DNA of 12,735 bases from a bacterium (lineage in GTDB: Bacteria > Zhuqueibacterota > Zhuqueibacteria > Oceanimicrobiales > Oceanimicrobiaceae): contig JBHHXT010000133.1 in the NCBI GenBank assembly GCA_046757165.1, forward strand, positions 1 through 12,735, read 5' to 3'. Under the pieces are notes generated by a model that did not search any database, was not told where the DNA came from, and was given only the letters and a program-made list of their open reading frames with translations. Shown here piece by piece: positions 2,076 to 12,457 of the stretch. The translations under genes and the position numbers were made by a program. Every line of letters begins with the position of its first letter. Position 1 is the stretch's first letter.

Positions 2076-2375
2076 TTAAAGCTCCAAAAGCTTTGCTCCA
2101 TGAATAATCCTCGAGATAAAAACTGAATATTCCAATACGCGGCATATTATTCGATATTTCTCATAAATTAGATGCCTGTAGTCCGTTCCGAAATACTCAT
2201 TCTCAGGTATGAATGGATTGCGGTTTGGCAGATCTTCAAGTGAATTGACTTTTTCTTCCAGTTCGATAACAAAATTTGTCGCGTTATCAATACTGTCATT
2301 TGCGACATAACAAAAAATACGTTCCAAATCTTCTTGTGCGTGCCGAGTTAAATATACTTCATATTTTTTTGGCAA
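2076..2375 (-). CDS. Type II toxin, RelE/ParE family (99 aa)
   Basis: MPKKYEVYLTRHAQEDLERIFCYVA...LEDLPNRNP...YRHLIYEKYRII...VFISRIIHGAKLL fits the ParE/RelE pattern. Likely TTG start at 2375 with AAGGA upstream, overlapping the antitoxin end by 17 bp. Confidence 0.88.
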   Translation of the reverse strand: MPKKYEVYLTRHAQEDLERIFCYVANDSIDNATNFVIELEEKVNSLEDLPNRNPFIPENEYFGTDYRHLIYEKYRIICRVLEYSVFISRIIHGAKLLEL

Positions 2376-2637
2376 TCTTAAATTCCTTGAAAAAAGATCT
2401 GGCTTCTTTGCAGCGATTGTCACTTATTTCTTCTTCAGCAGATATGAGAAGCTTGAGCAAACTGAATGCGTTCGTATTTTTTTCATATTCCTTTGCATCC
2501 ATGAGCACAGCTTCTGCTTTACCGTTTACGGTGAGAACAACTGGGCGTTTGGTTTTATGGATTTGCGCCAGAATTGAATTAGTTTTCCTTTTCAAATCTG
2601 TAATTGAACGTATGTCTTCTGTTATGCTTAATGTCAT
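2359..2637 (-). CDS. Type II antitoxin, Phd/YefM family (92 aa)
   Basis: IRSITDLKRKTNSILAQIHKTKRPVVLTVNGKAEAVLMDAKEYE is the Phd/YefM N-terminal signature. ATG at 2637 follows AAGGTG and lies directly upstream of the toxin. Confidence 0.9.
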   Translation of the reverse strand: MTLSITEDIRSITDLKRKTNSILAQIHKTKRPVVLTVNGKAEAVLMDAKEYEKNTNAFSLLKLLISAEEEISDNRCKEARSFFKEFKIAKKI

Positions 2638-2673
2638 TTTGAGCACCTTGTAATCATTTATCGTGACATGCTA

Positions 2674-2683
2674 TCTAGCTAGA
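2674..2683. promoter_or_regulatory. Possible antitoxin operator palindrome
   Basis: Perfect 10-bp palindrome TCTAGCTAGA about 40 bp upstream of the antitoxin start. Phd-family antitoxins autoregulate at promoter palindromes. Confidence 0.3.
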
Positions 2684-2735
2684 AGACACTCATTATTTCA
2701 AAAAATCTGGACTAAATATTTTCTGGCGATATTGA

Positions 2736-2766
2736 AACTTAACATATATTTAAGGTTCTTTGTCAA
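2736..2766 (-). promoter_or_regulatory. Outward-facing -35 (TTGACA) at the presumed IS right end, with a possible extended -10 toward the TA operon
   Basis: Minus strand: perfect TTGACA at 2766-2761, then TG-T-TAAGTT ending at 2736. The 19-bp spacer is long. Confidence 0.4.
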
Positions 2767-3060
2767 GAAAAAAGTTCACTCCCATGCCGATTTTTTGTTT
2801 TTTTTTGCCAAATCGGCTGCTAATCTGCAATTGGCGTGGTTGGGCCGCGTTCCGTCGTTGTTGTGGAGCGGGCCTGGGCTAACTGACTTTTGTCCGTTCG
2901 ACCGGTCAGCGTTACCCGGATCCTGTGCAGCAACGTGATTTCAAAAAGGCGGCTGGTTCACCTGGCTTCTGGCAGGATGCCGATGGCCGGTTTCCAGTTA
3001 GGGTCAGGCTCGAGAGCGAGGCAGAGCCGTTTTGAAGCCGAAAGTCACGTTGTTATGTAT

Positions 3061-3172
3061 GGATGGGGGCAGTGCGCGCCAGACTCCATTTATCTGGCGA
3101 GAGCTGCTGCCCCCATCCCATCCGGCGAAGCCGGATAAGGGCTGCCGCACCATGTTTCTCGGAATGGATGGG
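3061..3172. repeat. Cluster of inverted repeats / hairpins
   Basis: GGATGGGGGCAG (3061-3072) with CTGCCCCCATCC (3107-3118); inner CGCCAGA/TCTGGCG; ATCCGGC-GAA-GCCGGAT (3120-3136); 3112-3124 versus 3160-3172 is 11/13 complementary. Confidence 0.75.
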
Positions 3173-3255
3173 ACAAGCCCGGACGGTCCCTTAGAGCGCG
3201 AGTAATTGTTTTCTGGCTTGTTTGTCTTTGACGAACTTGAGTTCTGGGTCCCCGA

Positions 3256-3570
3256 CGTACGCGAGTCGATGGGGTCACTCTTGGCTTTGCCGCCGTGAAT
3301 CGCCTTCATGTAGTAGGCATGGCCAAGATAGAAGGGTAAGTTGGCTTGACAGCAACCATCGGCGAGCCAGTAATAGTAGCAGCTCGATTCGACGCCGACA
3401 GCCAGATTTGGCAGAAAGGGTTGCATGTAGTTGTTGAAAGTTTCGAAATCGTTTGGCATATTACGGCGAAAGAGAATCTCCCCTTGCTTGTCCATCACCG
3501 TGGCGAACATGGTGCGGAAGTGCAGGTCAATCCCACAGTAGTACTCAGCATCAACTTGGGCGAAACGCAT
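3256..3570 (-). pseudogene. IS110-family transposase, N-terminal DEDD (RuvC-like) fragment only (about 105 codons)
   Basis: MRFAQVDAEYYCGIDLHFRTM...AVGVESS...YWLAD...HAYYMKAIHGGKAKSDPIDS contains the GIDLH, E and K.D..D catalytic motifs. GGAGG RBS before the ATG at 3570. Similarity stops after 'DSRT'; the coiled-coil and Tnp (Ser) domains are absent. Confidence 0.88.
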
Positions 3571-3747
3571 GATGACACCTCCCGGGTAACGTAATATCAA
3601 TTCATTCACCCGACAAAAGGGCTCTGGATTTTTGAGCACGTTCAGTGACCTCGCAAAGTTCGTCTCAGATTCTCAGCTAAGTGCTCCAAAACCCTTTTGC
3701 AGGTTATGATCGTGTTAGGGCGGATTGTACAAATGGAGGTTCATGTG

Positions 3748-3948
3748 GTGAGCGATGAAATCTTAATCTACCAGTTCAAAATCACCCTGAGGGGCGTAAG
3801 CCCTCCAATATGGAGAAGGATTCAGGTTCCTCAGAACGATAGTTTTCGGGATCTACATGTCGCCTTGCAGGACGCTATGGGATGGTTTGATTGCCACCTT
3901 CACGTTTTTCGCGTTTTCAATGTTATTGTGGCACTCTTTACGCCGTGA
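3748..3948 (+). pseudogene. Truncated plasmid pRiA4b ORF-3 family protein
   Basis: IYQFKITLRGVSPPIWRRIQVP..SFRDLHVALQDAMGWFDCHLHVF is the family's N-terminal signature. GGAGG at 3735-3739. Only about 66 aa, with none of the C-terminal YEYDFGD.W.H / CPPED motifs. Confidence 0.85.
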
Positions 3949-4024: not shown

Positions 4025-5662
4025 ATGTTCGACCGTCAATGGAAATTCCTGGCAGTCGTTAGTCTGTTGCACCTCAACCTCTCTTGCCGCCATTCCGACG
4101 AGCCATTGACCACCGTGAAATCAGGTGGAACTTACCGAATCCCTGTCATATCAGACATCACCTCCCTTGACCCAATATCAGGGCAATTCCTTTCATGGAC
4201 CATTGGTAGTCAGATATTCGAAGGATTGGTTACTTACTCACGAGATGAATCCAGAATCATTCCGTTGCTGGCAGAGAGTTACGAAATCAACGACCTGAGG
4301 TTGACCTTCCATCTTCGCCAGGGCATACATTTCCATGATGATGCTTGCTTTCCTGGCGGCAAGGGTCGTGAACTTACTGCAAACGATGTCAAATATTCAT
4401 TTGAAAGAGGATGGGCAATTACTTCTGGCCATGGTGTTGCAAGTCTCGAGCCCTTCGTAGGGTATGAGGCATTTATCACTGGCAAATCGCCACATGTCAC
4501 TGGGTTCAGGGTGGTTGACAAGTTTACTTTTCAAATTCAATTGACAAGACCAAACCCGGGATTCCTAAATGATAAAATTGCATCTTTGGGTTTCTTTATC
4601 GTTCCCAGGGAAGCCGTTGATTTTTATGGAGAGGATTTCAAATTGCATCCGGTGGGCACCGGGCCGTTCAGGTTCTCCGAACTTGTGCCTAATGAAAAGC
4701 TGATCCTCGTCAGGAATGAAAATTATTGGAGTTCTGACAATGGCGTGCAACTTCCATATCTCGATGCCGTCGAGTATCTTTTGTACTCACCCGGTGAGAC
4801 AGAGAAGATGCTCCTGGACTTTCGCACGGGAAAGCTCGATGAGTGTACCCATGATGTCGCCAAACTTCTCGAAGACCTTGCGGAGTTGGATGAGCAAGGG
4901 AATTTGAACTTGCAAGGTTGGTTGAGAGACAAGAGCGTACAGTTTGTACAAGATTCCGTCTTTCGCAAACTGCGCTATATGGAAATTTTTGAGTCGAACA
5001 AGAAGGTGCGGCAGGCGATGTCGTATTCTGTTGATCGAAAGAGACTCGTCGAAGGTCAACAGAGCGTTTTTCAAAACTATGAAACTGCCAGGGGTCCGAT
5101 CGCACCGAATACGATTTACTTCAACCCGGAGCTCAAAGGACAATATTACGACCCGGACCAGGCGCGGCGCCTTCTTGCGGAAGCAGGCTTTCCAGATGGG
5201 AAAGGCTTGCCTGAATATCCGTTCTATTATGCTCCAGGTCCGGACGCAGATCAGGTCGTTGGAAATTTGAGATCCCTTGGTTTCAAGATCAGAAAAATAA
5301 ATAAACATCCGGGATGGCGGGAAGTTTTTGAGCGCCCCGGGCCCCTGCTGGCCTGGATGCGAAATCAAACCACCTCTCCAGAGGCGTATGACGTTCTCGA
5401 TTTAGTTGATGGACAGCCCGAGTGCATGACAGACAGCGTATTTTGGGGAGCCTTCCAGGAATGGCGGAAAAACGAAGAGAATTTCAAGAATTTGGACTTG
5501 CTGCACCGGGTGGAAGAAATCGCCTGTGACCTTACCCCGCAAGTCTTTCTCTATCATATTGGCGGAGACTTTAGATTCCTGCAAAGCTACGTCAGAGGCA
5601 GACAGCTTGGTAATGCCTGGGGGCATAAATTGCACTATGTCTGGCTCGATAAAGGTAAATAA
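4025..5662 (+). CDS. Family 5 (OppA/DppA-like) solute-binding lipoprotein, orphan (545 aa)
   Basis: Lipobox LSC (Cys21); motifs TSLDP, QIFEGLV, PLLAESY, FHLRQGIHFHDD, TANDVKYSFER, PVGTGPF, RNENYW, LPYLDAV, VRQAMSYSVDR and YDPDQARRLLAEAG. Confidence 0.92.
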   Translation: MFDRQWKFLAVVSLLHLNLSCRHSDEPLTTVKSGGTYRIPVISDITSLDPISGQFLSWTIGSQIFEGLVTYSRDESRIIPLLAESYEINDLRLTFHLRQGIHFHDDACFPGGKGRELTANDVKYSFERGWAITSGHGVASLEPFVGYEAFITGKSPHVTGFRVVDKFTFQIQLTRPNPGFLNDKIASLGFFIVPREAVDFYGEDFKLHPVGTGPFRFSELVPNEKLILVRNENYWSSDNGVQLPYLDAVEYLLYSPGETEKMLLDFRTGKLDECTHDVAKLLEDLAELDEQGNLNLQGWLRDKSVQFVQDSVFRKLRYMEIFESNKKVRQAMSYSVDRKRLVEGQQSVFQNYETARGPIAPNTIYFNPELKGQYYDPDQARRLLAEAGFPDGKGLPEYPFYYAPGPDADQVVGNLRSLGFKIRKINKHPGWREVFERPGPLLAWMRNQTTSPEAYDVLDLVDGQPECMTDSVFWGAFQEWRKNEENFKNLDLLHRVEEIACDLTPQVFLYHIGGDFRFLQSYVRGRQLGNAWGHKLHYVWLDKGK

Positions 5663-5665
5663 ATA

Positions 5666-7564
5666 ATGATTTTTATGAATCTCAAACTTTGCTTCCAGAA
5701 CTTAAAGATCAGACAAAAACTGATTCTGGTTTTCTTACCCATTCCTTTGCTCGGCATTGTAACTATTGGCTCGTTTTGGTATTGGAACGCCCTCAAAGCC
5801 GTTGAAAAATCGCTGCAAGAGCAGACATCCATTCTTGCTGAAAACGCCTCTCTTTTGGTTGAAAACTATTTGAACGAAAGGGAAGTTGAAATCAAATCTG
5901 CCTCGCAGTTGGGGTGGATCGTAGACTTTTTTGTTGAAGCCAATGAAAAAACCCCTCCGTCGGCAGATTTTCAAAACAGATTAAGGCAATTGCTTATCGA
6001 TTTGGGCGCCGGCCCCTTTCAGATAACCTGCGCCGACAGTAACGGCATCCTTTTTGCCAGAGCACAGCTCACCTCATTTTTGCCAAGAGACAAGCTCCCG
6101 GTCCATTTCGAAACGCGCTTTTTTAACAACCAGGACCTGATCGGAATTAGGGAATCATTAGCCGCGAATGCAGATCGGGTTTTTGTTTCAAATGTCAAGA
6201 GCATTCGTGGCTCGAAAGCGCTTATTTTTTCAACACCTGTGTGGAATAACAAAACTGCCGGAAGGTTGGGGATAATTGCTTTCTGTGTCGCCATCGCCAG
6301 GATCGCCGATGAGATTGAAACTCAAAGCCTGGGCCATGAAAGTCAAGCAATGATTCTGGACAAAGGTGGCGAAGTGCTTTACCATACCGACAGAAGAAAA
6401 GTCAACCAGAATATCAGTGCGGTCATGCCATTTTTTGTGCATGACTTCGATTTCATGCCTACCGCAAAGCAGGCCAGCAGAACCTTTCAGGATGAGCAAA
6501 ATGAGAGGTGGATTATCTCGGCCACTTCTGTGAAAAAGACCGGCTGGGCCATCGCTATTTCGAGCCCTGTCAAGCCGTTCATTCAGCCAACGCAACGCGC
6601 CGGATTGTTCGGCATTGCCGCCAGCATTGGCGTGTCAATTCTACTTTTGTTCTTGATTCATCGTTTCAGCAAAGAATTTGTAACTGATATTTCGGAGGTA
6701 ACAGAGGGCGCCAGAGCGGTCGCTTCGGGTGACCTCAACCGTCAACTTCCCGTACGTACCGGTGATGAGATTGGCGAACTGGCAAAAGATTTCAACAAAA
6801 TGTCGGCAAACCTGCAACGGCTCATCAGAGAACGTCAAGCCAACGAAACGCTCGTAACCATCGGCAGGTTTTCATCTGCTCTGGCGCATGACTTACGCAA
6901 TCCGATCGAAGGCATGAAGTTATTATCGAGTGAACTCAAGAAGCGAATGAGTGGCTCAGATTCCGCCTATGAAGTTGCCGATGCCATCTCACAATCTGCC
7001 GAAAACTTATCGACGCTCGTTAATCAGTCTCTGGATTTTGCGAGACTCAACCAGCCTGACTTTGCCCCGATGAATCTGGCGACCCTTGCGAATGAGCTGC
7101 TGGCAGATTTCCATTTTGAGAGAGTTGAATTGAAACGCGACTACGCCGACGATTTGCCCAATGTGGAGGTAGACGCGGCACAAATCAAGCGCGTTCTTGC
7201 CAACCTGGTTCGAAATGCTTTGGATGCTTGTCTGGCCAATAGAAATCACGAAAGAAACGAAATCACTCTGACCTTGAAAGGCAGGGGAGAGAAAATGATT
7301 GTCGAGGTTGCAGATACCGGCGTGGGGATTCCCCCGGAGTCTGGCAAGAAAATCTTTGAGCCGTTTTTCACCACCAAGGCCGGTGGCCACGGGTTGGGGC
7401 TGGCCCTGGTGCGGCAGATTATTGCGAACCACAGTGGGACCATTGCCTTCAAAAGTGAAGACGGGCAAGGGACGCGATTTGTGATTGAGTTGCCCATTGT
7501 TCAGAGCAGCCATTCGGAGTCATTGAAATTATCGCACTCGCTCAAGAATAGATTGAAAATATAG
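5666..7564 (+). CDS. Membrane sensor histidine kinase (TM-dCache-TM-HAMP-HisKA-HATPase)
   Basis: Two hydrophobic helices flank a periplasmic region of about 275 aa with Cache-like ILDKGGEVLYHTD and TGWAIAIS. HAMP GDLNRQLPVRTGDEIGELAKDFNKM; H-box AHDLRNP; N-box NLVRNALDA; DTGVGIP; IFEPFFTTK; GHGLGL. Starts 3 bp after the SBP stop. Confidence 0.95.
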   Translation: MIFMNLKLCFQNLKIRQKLILVFLPIPLLGIVTIGSFWYWNALKAVEKSLQEQTSILAENASLLVENYLNEREVEIKSASQLGWIVDFFVEANEKTPPSADFQNRLRQLLIDLGAGPFQITCADSNGILFARAQLTSFLPRDKLPVHFETRFFNNQDLIGIRESLAANADRVFVSNVKSIRGSKALIFSTPVWNNKTAGRLGIIAFCVAIARIADEIETQSLGHESQAMILDKGGEVLYHTDRRKVNQNISAVMPFFVHDFDFMPTAKQASRTFQDEQNERWIISATSVKKTGWAIAISSPVKPFIQPTQRAGLFGIAASIGVSILLLFLIHRFSKEFVTDISEVTEGARAVASGDLNRQLPVRTGDEIGELAKDFNKMSANLQRLIRERQANETLVTIGRFSSALAHDLRNPIEGMKLLSSELKKRMSGSDSAYEVADAISQSAENLSTLVNQSLDFARLNQPDFAPMNLATLANELLADFHFERVELKRDYADDLPNVEVDAAQIKRVLANLVRNALDACLANRNHERNEITLTLKGRGEKMIVEVADTGVGIPPESGKKIFEPFFTTKAGGHGLGLALVRQIIANHSGTIAFKSEDGQGTRFVIELPIVQSSHSESLKLSHSLKNRLKI

Positions 7565-7611
7565 AATAATTTTCTTGCTTTGTGAAGGTCAAATGGTTGA
7601 AAGAAGAAGTC

Positions 7612-7821
7612 ATGAAACTGCAATCCTTACCTCAGATCGAAAAATCGATTGAAGCATTGCCTTATGTGGAGCAGATCAAATTGATTGAAAGAATTGTGCA
7701 CCGTCTGCGCCAAGAATTACCCGGCGCCAACACCCAGAAACAAACCGGATTTGAAAAACGACTTGCAGTAATGGCAGCGGATTTTCAAATCCAATCTGAG
7801 CTGCGAAATATTTCCATCTGA
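7612..7821 (+). CDS. Small helical hypothetical protein resembling putative antitoxins; possibly truncated
   Basis: MKLQSLPQIEKSIEALPYVEQIKLIERIVHRLR...LAVMAADFQIQSELRNI. The 'LP..EQL.LIE.L' and 'MAAD.EIQ.EL' patterns recall small proteins that precede PemK/MazF toxins (recognition from memory). It fills the kinase-regulator gap and ends 4 bp before the next ATG. Confidence 0.5.
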   Translation: MKLQSLPQIEKSIEALPYVEQIKLIERIVHRLRQELPGANTQKQTGFEKRLAVMAADFQIQSELRNISI

Positions 7822-7825
7822 ATTT

Positions 7826-9220
<1,395 letters not shown>

Positions 9221-9235
9221 TGTCGCACCTTCGCG

Positions 9236-9276
9236 GGGATTGCTTCGCCGCAATGAACGCGGGATTCGCAATGACA
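9236..9276 (-). repeat. GTCATTGCGA...GAAGCAATC-type REP-like element
   Basis: The minus strand reads TGTCATTGCGAATCCCGCGTTCATTGCGGCGAAGCAATCCC, matching the widespread GTCATTGCGA-N-GAAGCAATC intergenic repeat pattern, 15 bp after the regulator stop. Confidence 0.65.
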
Positions 9277-9514
9277 GCCCTGGGGCGGGAACAAACGCCA
9301 CACTTTGTGCTCTTTTCGCCCATTCATTCTTAACCACCTATTTAACCAAGAGTTACTCATCCTTCGCGTTTGAACAACCTGACAAGCTTTGTGCGGTTCG
9401 TTCCCCCCCGCCCTTTCAAGACTCAAACACAACTCAAAGAACCACATCATTCCAATTCCTAATAAAACAGCAGCTTAAGCCACCTCTTTTCACCTGAGTC
9501 AAAGCAGAACAGCT

Positions 9515-9530
9515 TTGGCATCGAGTTTGT
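9515..9530 (+). promoter_or_regulatory. Putative sigma54 (-24/-12) promoter
   Basis: TTGGCATCGAGTTTGT versus consensus YTGGCACGNNNTTGC. GG at 9517-9518, exactly 10 nt, then GT in place of GC. It lies about 300 bp downstream of a sigma54 activator gene. Confidence 0.6.
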
Positions 9531-9567
9531 CTTGGTTAACTCCTCAAAGTTCCGTGAAAATTCTGTG

Positions 9568-9942
9568 GTGAATAACTTGCAAACTATCTTAGTCGTCGAC
9601 GATGACTTCGCCATGCGCCGCGGCATCGCCCTCACCTTGCGCGGAGATGGCTATACCGTGTTTGAAGCGGAGGACAGCACGACAGCCCTGCAATTGCTGC
9701 ATGAAAACAGCATTGAACTGGCCGTTGTGGACTTGTTTCTACTAGGACGAGATGGGCTGGAACTCGCTGAGAGTCTTCTGAAACTCAGCCCGCCCACTAA
9801 GATTCTGATGGTCACAGCTCACGGTGAGCATGAGCGGGCCAAAGAGGCGCAAGACCAGTTCGGGGAAAACTTTTTGGATAAATCGCAACTCGACAAGCTT
9901 TTGCTCAAGAAAGTGCAGAGGCTTTTCGAGAGTGTGAGATAA
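9568..9942 (+). CDS. Single-domain response regulator (CheY-like receiver); start uncertain (GTG 9565/9568 or TTG 9577)
   Basis: ILVVDDD, phosphoacceptor in AVVDLF, DGLEL, MVTAHG and FLDK; no output domain. Confidence 0.88.
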   Translation: MNNLQTILVVDDDFAMRRGIALTLRGDGYTVFEAEDSTTALQLLHENSIELAVVDLFLLGRDGLELAESLLKLSPPTKILMVTAHGEHERAKEAQDQFGENFLDKSQLDKLLLKKVQRLFESVR

Positions 9943-10072
9943 AATAGATTCCTGGAATACTCGGTTGGCCGTTGGCTTTTCGCCTTTGGCTCCTAATTTT
10001 TTGGAATTTACGTCGTGATTATCATTCCACCCGTCAGGTGACGTGCAATAACTTACAATCGGAGGTAGAACT

Positions 10073-12457
10073 ATGTACAGCCTTAATATCTGTGTCTTGA
10101 AGAGGCAGGCAATTGCATTGCTTCTCGGCTTTCTTATGACCGTTGCTGTTCGCGCCGAAAATCCAAACAGAAAATACGTAAAGACAGATGCAAAAAGAGG
10201 GGCGTCAAGGGAAACGGCGCCAAAAAGTAAGAGACTCCATAAAAGTTCTGCTTTCCTGGTGGCGGAGATTGAGCCTAATAATACAACGCAAGAGGCGCAG
10301 GTGCTGACAGGCGCTTCTCCCCTGGTGGTGAGCGGCAACGCAGAAGTCTCGGACGACGGCGAGCTTTTCGTCGATGACGATGATCTCGAGGACCTGTTCA
10401 GGGTCACGACGACCGCGACGGGCATCACCATCACGCTTGACAATTTCACTTCAGATTGCGACCTCTGGTTAATCGATCCGGATGACTTGAGTGTCTTGGA
10501 CGCGTCCTTGACCATCGCTGCTACGGAGCCTGAAGTCATTGACAACGCAGAACTGCCTGCGGGGACGTACTTGATCGGCGTCACTATTTTCGATCCGGAC
10601 CCACTCGGCCCGGACAATACTCCTTACGAACTTACAATAACCGGAGAATTTGGCGGCGGTACACCGGGCGCAACGCCCGCCGGCACACTTGTTTACCACC
10701 AAATCACCTCCTTCAGCGAAAGTCAGGTAGGAGGCCAGGGCTGGCAGCATGTGCTCAGCGACAACGGCGGGCATGTGGTGTGGTACAAACAAAGGAACCC
10801 CAAAGGCGTTTTTACAGCGAACGCAGATGGCAGCAATATTCGGGAAGTAGCTAACCTGGACACAGGCCCTTTGTCACAAGTAGATATTAGCGCCGACGGC
10901 TCCAGAATTGCCTATATTGGTAGCCCTCCCTTTACTGGTCCACAGGTTCATACTGTCAATGCGGATGGCAGCAACGATCGGATCTTGCTTGCTCTCAATA
11001 GAAGTATCGGGACGCTTCGGCTCACAGGTGACGGCAGTAAGGTTTTTGTTAATGTGTCTAGCGATGCGAGAATCCAGGGTTCCGGTGACCTGATTGAGCG
11101 TGGGGTCTATTCTATCAATCTTGATAGCAGCGGCTTACAACAGGTGGTTGGGCCCGCGAGCATCGCCGGCCTGCTTGGCATTGCCGCAAGCGATGTGAGA
11201 TTCGATGGTTTCACTCGAGGTCCGGTGGTGGATGTTTCCTTTGACGGCGCCCGCTTTGTTTTTGTCGCCAAGACTACGCAAACCGGGGAACGCCACGTTT
11301 TTACGGCCAACGGCGACGGTTCGGGCGTGCGCCGCATTTTCAGTCCCCCACCTACAACTCCAATAGAAGTCGGCATGAGCCGCAATGGTGCGAAGGTGGC
11401 ATTCATCGTGACTGTCGGCGGTAATCGTGAAGGTTATACCTCGAATTTTGATGGCTCGCAGCTCCTGAAGATTGCATCAAATGAGCAGTTCTTTTTTACG
11501 GGTTCATTCGGAAATGACGTAGGTGATCAGATTTCCCTGACCGCGGACGGTTCAAAAGTGATATTCAATGGCAGCTTCGGGCATTTGTTCAACAGCGACG
11601 GCAGCGGGGTCGTGCAGCTTTCCGCCAACGCCGCTGCACCGGCTGGATTCCCTCTCATCGTCGGCAGTCTCGCACGAGCAACCATGAGCAGCGATGGCGC
11701 CCGGGTTCTCTTTTCTTTCAAGAGCCCTGAAAACCGATGGCAGTTGGCGACGTTGGATATCAATCCTGCCAGCCTCGGAGAAGCGCCCGCTCTCACGGAC
11801 ATCACCGTCAACCCTGATGTTGTGGCTGTGAACGGTGCATCGAATGCGACCATTCGCGTCAAGGTTAGCCCCGCAAATAACGTCTCCTATGTGGGCAACG
11901 TGGCCCTGCTCAACGGGCTGCGGGATTCCAAAGTAACGAATCGGAGGTTTTTTGATGATGGCGTTTCAGCCGGCGATGATGTGGCGGGGGACGGGATTTT
12001 TACCCATAACGCAATCTCGGCATTTTCCGATGCGGAAATCGGCCCGCGCATTCTGCGCATCACTGCTGAAGTTTTTTCCGCGGACAGCCGTTTGCACGGC
12101 ACGGCCGTGGCTGTTGAACCGTTCGCCGTTGTGCAGAATCCGCCCGTGAGTGTCGAGACCCCGGCAGGGAATATCCCCAATACATTTTCTCTCAGCCCAA
12201 ACTACCCCAACCCGTTCAATCCGGAGACGCGCATCGACTTTGTCTTGCCGAACTCCGCCAATATTCGCCTGGTGGTCTTCAATTTATTGGGACAGCAAAT
12301 CAGAACTCTGATTCGTGAGAAAAAAGGGGCCGGTACTTTCAGCGTGGTCTGGGACGGCCGAATGGACAATGGGCAACAGGCCGCTTCGGGGGTTTATATC
12401 TATCGGCTGCAAGCTGAGCGATTTGTACAAAGCAGGAAGCTGCTGTTGCTGAGGTAA
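10073..12457 (+). CDS. Secreted multidomain protein: signal peptide, acidic PPC-like domain, TolB/PD40-like beta-propeller, choice-of-anchor X-like domain, FlgD-Ig/T9SS type A sorting domain (794 aa)
   Basis: GGAGG RBS at 10061-10065; signal peptide ending AVRA; EIEPNNT..EAQ...YELTITG; seven 'S.DG.+V.F'-type repeats; FFDDGVSAGDDVAGDGIFT; C-terminal FSLSPNYPNPFNPET...VWDGRMDNGQQAASGVYIYRL...SRKLLLLR. Confidence 0.9.
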   Translation: MYSLNICVLKRQAIALLLGFLMTVAVRAENPNRKYVKTDAKRGASRETAPKSKRLHKSSAFLVAEIEPNNTTQEAQVLTGASPLVVSGNAEVSDDGELFVDDDDLEDLFRVTTTATGITITLDNFTSDCDLWLIDPDDLSVLDASLTIAATEPEVIDNAELPAGTYLIGVTIFDPDPLGPDNTPYELTITGEFGGGTPGATPAGTLVYHQITSFSESQVGGQGWQHVLSDNGGHVVWYKQRNPKGVFTANADGSNIREVANLDTGPLSQVDISADGSRIAYIGSPPFTGPQVHTVNADGSNDRILLALNRSIGTLRLTGDGSKVFVNVSSDARIQGSGDLIERGVYSINLDSSGLQQVVGPASIAGLLGIAASDVRFDGFTRGPVVDVSFDGARFVFVAKTTQTGERHVFTANGDGSGVRRIFSPPPTTPIEVGMSRNGAKVAFIVTVGGNREGYTSNFDGSQLLKIASNEQFFFTGSFGNDVGDQISLTADGSKVIFNGSFGHLFNSDGSGVVQLSANAAAPAGFPLIVGSLARATMSSDGARVLFSFKSPENRWQLATLDINPASLGEAPALTDITVNPDVVAVNGASNATIRVKVSPANNVSYVGNVALLNGLRDSKVTNRRFFDDGVSAGDDVAGDGIFTHNAISAFSDAEIGPRILRITAEVFSADSRLHGTAVAVEPFAVVQNPPVSVETPAGNIPNTFSLSPNYPNPFNPETRIDFVLPNSANIRLVVFNLLGQQIRTLIREKKGAGTFSVVWDGRMDNGQQAASGVYIYRLQAERFVQSRKLLLLR

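Follow-up and report, generated by a model that had tools for sequence, protein, structure and literature searches.

What does an oligopeptide-type binding lipoprotein do when no transporter genes accompany it and the gene for a sensor kinase begins 3 bp beyond its own end? The question is raised by a 12,735-nucleotide stretch of DNA (hereafter, the window) that is the entire contig C133 (JBHHXT010000133.1) of the 6.09-Mb genome of a KSB1 (Zhuqueibacterota) bacterium. Five genes, co-oriented on the + strand, occupy positions 4025–12457 and encode a family-5 solute-binding protein (SBP), a dCache sensor kinase, an NtrC-type sigma-54 activator (enhancer-binding protein, EBP), a single-domain receiver and a secreted-type protein; an earlier note on this sequence read them as one circuit in which a ligand is sensed rather than imported. 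The cassette is real and conserved, and apparently undescribed. Judging from sequence, we give a probability of roughly 60% to the reading that the transporter-less SBP–kinase–EBP cassette is a three-component sensor of the AioXSR type, built on an uncharacterized lineage of family-5 SBPs, and that it drives the adjacent sigma-54 promoter, behind which the receiver and secreted-protein genes lie.

The gene for the SBP (P0001; 4025–5662, 545 residues, PF00496) ends 3 bp before that of the kinase (P0002; 5666–7564), and no permease or ATPase open reading frame (ORF) occurs in the window, all as the earlier note had seen. The activator gene (P0003; 7826–9220) comes next, so that the order given in the note is kept; however, it does not follow the kinase directly, because a 261-bp gap with a 69-codon ORF (7612–7821, +; no Pfam match) intervenes. 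This ORF is likely a passenger that is absent from that place in relatives; at the same junction, L050 (loci are numbered L) carries an unrelated PD-(D/E)XK gene.

Whether the closest homologues of the SBP lie in ordinary opp/dpp operons, and whether the gene order is conserved, had been left by the note as checks; both results favor a dedicated cassette. We compared 24 loci (the window, L036, L040, L048–L052, L080, L081, L084, L115–L125, L132 and L133, with L051, L080, L084 and L132 as held-out members). The kinase gene directly follows the SBP gene in 22 of them, the exceptions being L115 and L133 (in L133 the SBP gene runs off the contig); OppB or OppC matches occur in 0/24, with short upstream DNA in several; and the activator is present in all 17 loci that reach beyond the kinase. 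The only ABC ATPase noted, in L049, is unrelated and 8 kb distant. In a reciprocal search of 167 KSB1 genomes with a profile of the kinase sensor domain, all 16 places found were behind an SBP of this family; 15 of these are training rows and one was held out, and low identity between subclades limits the reach of the profile. As a control, opp genes are adjacent in 9/23 loci of distant family-5 (SBP5) genes and in 4/21 loci of a second non-family set. Among the latter 21 loci, eight have a kinase behind the SBP gene and seven are orphans without a neighboring kinase, so being an orphan says little by itself.

The membership of P0001 in family 5 is unambiguous (PF00496, SBP_bac_5; E = 2.7e-54, 185 bits, cut-off 32.4), and its lipoprotein-type Cys21 is almost invariant across the SBP family. 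A protein search returned 17 relatives (P0007–P0023) that are 47–76% identical to P0001, with the next sequences at ≤39%. A profile of 16 family sequences (A1), used to search the 167 genomes of the window's phylum, identified 19 distinct loci in 18 genomes at E ≤ 1e-30; 18 of these loci are family members, and the weakest, L126, sits in an oppBC operon and was excluded. A wider profile of 28 rows (A2) recovered the same 18 loci in 17/167 KSB1 genomes, that is, the distribution of the family is patchy; all 18 are training rows or nearly identical to them, so the score gap that sets the family apart arises partly by construction. Among 86 genomes from the phylum to which L052 (Calditrichaceae) belongs, A2 found the training locus, the held-out L132 (589 bits) and the partial, doubtful L133. 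Roughly 30 further profile matches score above 450 bits. By name alone, 20 profile matches point beyond KSB1 and Calditrichota, to Melioribacteraceae, Chlorobiota, Bacteroidota and Koleobacter; viral contigs contained nothing related to the SBP profile. In a close relative, an SBP gene fragment at L039:1627–1851 (G018:C312; ~80% identical over residues 12–62) is followed by no part of the module and resembles a degraded copy.

The profile also scored several long proteins that we rejected as fused family members: P0126 (2843 residues, 696 bits) is a BTAD-AAA protein in which the scores of four SBP5 domains are summed, and the others, with scores likewise summed, are fusions to methyl-accepting chemotaxis protein (MCP), kinase or DyP domains or tandem SBP5 proteins. 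As proteins in their own right, those in which SBP5 domains are fused to BTAD-AAA, MCP signaling or Ser/Thr kinase-AAA regions (P0126, P0168, P0186, P0210, P0222 and L060) show regulatory reuse of the fold elsewhere.

What the SBP might bind is constrained by its model and its pocket. The AlphaFold2 model of P0001 is a confident family-5 fold (pLDDT 88), closest to 8UPI and to H. pylori DppA; in Foldseek comparisons with DppA/OppA structures (8UPI, 6OFQ and 1DPP) the TM-score is ~0.73 at 20–24% identity. None of the NCBIfam equivalog cut-offs for OppA, DppA, NikA, GsiB and SapA (393–1005) is reached by P0001 (best score, 93 bits), and no chitooligosaccharide-binding protein is named among the listed PDB matches of the SBP family. 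In profile alignments, the W-x-x-D-x-P pocket motif of 8UPI and 6OFQ becomes N447-x-x-T450-x-P452 in the window's subclade; a second subclade has an SFxPxYPD-like sequence at this position, and L116 and L119 retain WIxDYPD, including the Asp. In the alignment to 8UPI and 6OFQ, the column of the peptide-anchoring Asp of DppA is thus occupied by Thr450 in P0001, and the loop that bears an Arg in DppA is shorter; by its motif, this column is taken to be that of D408 in E. coli DppA. D408 forms a salt bridge with the peptide amino terminus in the passages on peptide binding in PMC3295651. Because DppA-type anchor residues are lost in the window's subclade, a free-ended linear peptide held as in DppA is, from the alignments, an unlikely ligand, and of the peptide- or oligosaccharide-like ligands proposed in the earlier note, a plain peptide is doubtful. 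In the model, ~13 residues link Cys21 to the first strand, a length that would fit anchoring in the inner membrane beside the kinase.

The kinase P0002 has HAMP, HisKA and HATPase_c domains, and its phospho-acceptor, His408, is invariant in 17 aligned rows; its dCache_1 match (E = 4.9e-9) is under the curated cut-off, which the homologues from L036, L050 and L051 exceed. Along the cassette, pairwise identities of the SBP track those of the sensor domain (Pearson 0.96, 17 loci), and identities of the kinase core track those of the EBP (Pearson 0.94, 13 loci). The two halves part company in L048 and L050, which share 60% identity with the window in the SBP and 42–49% in the sensor domain but only 33–34% in the kinase core, compared with 62–65% core identity in other close loci. 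In approximately unbiased (AU) tests, the SBP grouping fails for the core data (p-AU 1.6e-64). Together these comparisons suggest a kinase-core swap in L048/L050.

The activator P0003 has the architecture of an NtrC-type protein (REC, an AAA+ domain with intact GAFTGA, and a helix-turn-helix (HTH) domain), and two co-oriented genes follow it, both as described in the earlier note. The note had also placed a -24/-12-like promoter ahead of these genes, and here position and conservation lend support, whereas the -12 element itself departs from consensus: the window's candidate, TGGCAT-N5-TTGT at 9516–9531 (+), has GT, not GC, at -12. By itself, the pattern has two occurrences in the window, with 0.85 expected; its position within the 353-bp gap has a shuffle P of 0.006. 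Using a pattern drawn from seven loci, we found the motif in 11 of 15 regions behind the EBP gene (per-region shuffle P, 0.004–0.06), including four loci that were fetched after the pattern was set (L116, L121, L122 and L125); it is missing in L117, L119 and two short regions. In the window's own genome, 17 of 35 EBP genes have a sigma-54 motif within 500 bp, and in six of these 17 motifs an A or T, not C, stands at -12. The GT variant is thus normal for the lineage, and the motifs suggest relaxed recognition of the -12 element.

Upstream of the promoter lies a palindrome, CCRCR-N3-TGYGS (9298–9310, +), at -218 in the window, -206 in L036, -215 in L049 and -217 in L081. The pattern is post hoc, drawn from those four loci, but the spacing is not; the four are the loci with the most similar EBPs (P0003 itself or 69–74% identical). 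As a terminator the palindrome is a poor candidate: the window copy has, by eye, only a 4-bp stem and was not called in the terminator scan, so we read it as a DNA site and regard it as a candidate EBP-binding site. A palindrome and promoter spaced by 190–240 bp occur together just once more in the genome; we considered a wider regulon and set it aside, this single additional case being probably due to chance.

The receiver gene (P0004; 9568–9942, +; PF00072, with the start codon at 9568 or 9577) is the first of the two genes behind the promoter. Thirteen loci have enough DNA beyond the activator to judge what follows it; a lone receiver is found in nine. The receivers of the window, L036, L049, L050 and L081 retain the phospho-acceptor Asp (Asp55 in P0004). 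In L052, L121, L122 and L125, all of which precede the same repeat-rich cargo family, Glu replaces this Asp. Among 123 other receivers in the genome, the one whose helix 1 is closest to that of P0004 belongs to the cognate EBP (score 27, versus 18 for the next). The lone receiver is predicted to be a feedback sink for phosphate.

The second gene (10073–12457, +) encodes P0005, a protein of 794 residues with a signal-peptide-like N-terminus (judged by eye), a weak PPC match, and a C-terminal domain (CTD) that scores 40.7 bits against TIGR04183 (cut-off 23). The genome carries rpoN and SprA, as well as 24 PorV-family matches (16 above the cut-off); by its CTD, its N-terminus and the genomic SprA and PorV, P0005 is a type-A cargo of type IX secretion (T9SS), with predicted export. 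In its model, residues ~200–565 form a TolB-like propeller, after which come an Ig-like domain and the CTD (residues 17–198 are of low confidence). Apart from propeller-only matches, no hydrolase domain was found in Pfam or NCBIfam; a catalytic cargo was considered and rejected, since the best propeller-level folds, TolB and oligogalacturonate lyase, have low TM and all Atlas matches are <0.9.

The earlier note also asked whether CTD-bearing cargo follows the cassette elsewhere, and whether it varies. It does both: a co-oriented CTD-bearing gene is found in seven of the 13 loci (six have no CTD gene there), and the cargos differ between loci. The beta-propeller that the note took as the output therefore does not hold up as such, since it is the cargo in only two of the seven loci, the window and L081; in L081, the propeller is encoded between the promoter and the receiver gene, 11 bp before the latter. 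A common, homologous, repeat-rich CTD cargo distinct from the propeller is found in L052, L121, L122 and L125, which form one subclade, and the cargo of L036 is unrelated (laminin-B, dockerin and cohesin matches). The genome has 148 CTD-like ORFs, and propeller homologues occur in four other KSB1 genomes without the SBP family. The conserved feature is thus a cargo slot, not the propeller protein.

Upstream of the module, the window contains a Phd/ParE toxin–antitoxin pair in a low-GC stretch, an IS110 transposase remnant and a pRiA4b ORF3 fragment (all within 2076–3948, just ahead of the module), as well as a divergent gene for a DUF885 protein (258–2063, −) that is not beside the module in relatives. 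Elsewhere in the genome, locus L003 (G000:C170:975–10657) is a cluster of an Hsp70-like gene, a TPR-like ORF, a divergent SBP5 gene and unusual OppB/C-like permease genes.

Coupling of an SBP5 gene to a kinase gene recurs in KSB1 and Calditrichota. In a second pair (L128:5183–8290 in G000:C138, and L029–L034), a family-5 SBP of ~410 residues directly precedes a dCache kinase, and no regulator adjoins them; the pair is kept in 6/6 relatives' loci checked, with SBP identities of 40–56%. A third SBP5–kinase(–EBP) family is found at L141, L142, L144, L148, L149, L151, L152 and L153; both of its kinases that were scanned carry an sCache_3 sensor, and a gene for a B12-binding radical-SAM protein lies just upstream in four scanned loci (L142, L144, L149 and L152), so that the arrangement resembles a signal-synthase circuit. 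In Calditrichota, the orphan SBP5 genes of L134–L140 have an aspartate-kinase-like neighbor in 6/7 loci (judged from N-terminal sequence only).

Taking the module as a three-component sensor, we propose that the lipid-anchored SBP would be closed by a ligand in the periplasm, probably something other than an ordinary peptide with free ends, and would then dock on the dCache domain of the kinase and signal through dCache and HAMP to His408. The EBP, once phosphorylated, would bind the palindrome ~215 bp upstream and open the sigma-54 promoter. The lone receiver, as the first product, would compete for kinase phosphate and damp the response; the cargo, as the second, would leave by the type IX system and may act as a surface binding protein.

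Several observations weigh against this reading. On the input side, L115 (8711–12605) has a family SBP followed by a 288-residue ORF without Pfam match and, in place of a kinase, a SpoIIE-type phosphatase; it is possibly the same receptor wired to a different output. Rank correlations show no preference of the SBP for the sensor domain (Spearman 0.59, versus 0.65 for SBP and core; the loci, as kin, are not independent), and the core grouping is not rejected by the SBP (p-AU 0.078) or sensor (0.094) data. On the output side, a sigma-54 motif behind an EBP gene is usual in this genome (the 17/35 given above) and CTD-bearing ORFs number 148, so neither is special to this family; the palindrome is absent in seven of 11 regions tested; and, across loci, helix 1 of the receiver is the best match to its own EBP in only 1/9. 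For the remainder of the P0004 domain, the cognate EBP comes second, and common descent may therefore account for the rank of helix 1 within the genome. Co-transcription of receiver and cargo is putative, the genes being separated by 130 bp in which no terminator-like site was called. In addition, an oppBC pair is present on contig C237 of the same genome, with no SBP among the listed ORFs of that contig.

One alternative is that the SBP serves an ABC permease whose genes are located elsewhere, either as its sole function or in a double role as in Vibrio CBP, and that the dCache domain binds the ligand itself. E. coli MppA is reportedly such an orphan SBP that feeds a permease encoded elsewhere. 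The unlinked oppBC pair could be the partner, and seven non-family SBP5 loci of Calditrichota (L134–L140) are orphans without an adjacent kinase; moreover, CBP is listed with both transporter and signaling genes in the table passages of PMC8050422. Against this stand the tight linkage to the kinase across two phyla, a sensor domain that is never found without the SBP, the patchy family (17/167 KSB1 genomes) that travels without a permease, and a separate SBP gene that adjoins an OppD-like gene on C159 of the same genome; we consider a permease-serving SBP unlikely. Could the sensor cassette and receiver be real and the secreted protein a bystander, because a mobile cassette lands among many CTD genes? 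The 148 CTD-like ORFs, the six of 13 loci without a following CTD gene, the unrelated cargo of L036, the propeller homologues in four KSB1 genomes scored outside the SBP family, and the IS110 remnant and toxin–antitoxin pair upstream in the window all speak for such an accident; yet seven of 13 loci have a co-oriented CTD gene, four distant loci share one homologous cargo, and the propeller gene of L081 is placed between promoter and receiver, which together make a bystander quite improbable. Least probable is an autoinducing loop, where the output operon itself gives rise to the ligand, e.g., through processing of the cargo or as a compound that the cargo releases. Pocket motif, receiver type and cargo family do co-vary by subclade, and a sister SBP5–kinase–EBP family lies behind a B12 radical-SAM gene; however, the co-variation may be plain ancestry, the loci of the family have no conserved synthase or small peptide gene, and the N-termini of the cargos have no evident common motif.

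If the three-component reading is correct, the module provides a transporter-free family-5 SBP–kinase pair, and 'ABC transporter substrate-binding protein' labels in KSB1 and Calditrichota would overcount peptide uptake. The path from receptor to output can be read from the sequence, so the module could be rebuilt in E. coli and used as a ligand screen; it would also offer a handle on what uncultured KSB1 sense and on when their many CTD-bearing secreted proteins are deployed. A bolder extension, which we regard as a long shot, is that KSB1 and Calditrichota have repeatedly made family-5 SBPs into dedicated, swappable receptors (three SBP5–kinase families), that in the window's family the SBP and dCache half recombines onto different kinase–activator halves, and that the rebuilt pocket reads a signal linked to the induced cargo, that is, that the module is a receiver-damped secretion-sensing loop.

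How does the module compare with systems already characterized? No description of it was found in the literature searched, which lacks most subscription papers, and no paper was found there that treats both KSB1 and type IX secretion. The permease and ATPase genes linked to an Opp or Dpp import system are not found at the locus; the transport proteins (8UPI, 6OFQ and 1DPP) share the fold, whereas the window's SBP has no nearby permease and a changed pocket motif. For LuxP–LuxQ, LuxO acts through a LuxU relay, whereas the EBP of the window is adjacent. In both LuxP–LuxQ and HptA–HptS, according to the passages on them in PMC8050422 (a 2021 review), an SBP docks on a dCache-type sensor domain, as is predicted for the window's SBP, whereas their SBPs belong to families other than family 5; in the same passages, kinase-stimulating SBPs have their genes with signaling genes, and HptA is listed with signaling genes only. 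CBP–ChiS of Vibrio, the sole family-5 SBP–kinase pair in the table passages of that review, is closer, since a family-5 SBP there acts on a dCache-like kinase (PMC8050422 and PMC12704726). However, CBP is listed there with transporter as well as signaling genes, unlike the transporter-less SBP of the window, and ChiS is a hybrid kinase that itself binds to DNA; in P0002, neither a receiver nor a DNA-binding domain is matched, so it is not a hybrid of this kind.

The closest likeness is to AioX–AioS–AioR of Rhizobium NT-26 and Agrobacterium, where, in the passages of PMC6011840 that describe it, binding protein, kinase and activator are encoded in one operon, and an RpoN promoter and the output genes lie directly downstream; the order SBP, kinase, activator, RpoN promoter, output is that of the window. 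The conserved linkage of these three genes without a transporter is found in the window's family, and the downstream RpoN promoter, with a genomic rpoN, is found at the level of a motif. The earlier note knew of no characterized system with this combination; the layout, however, is that of AioXSR. AioX is a Phosphonate-bd protein (PF12974) and AioS is sCache-like in the passages of PMC8050422 that list them, whereas the window has a family-5 lipoprotein and a dCache kinase; the AioXSR output is an oxidase, whereas that of the window is a lone receiver and a CTD-bearing secreted protein. By this analogy, the logic of the circuit is already known in kind, which limits the surprise; what would set the module apart is its receptor, a family-5 SBP paired with a kinase free of the transporter linkage of CBP–ChiS.

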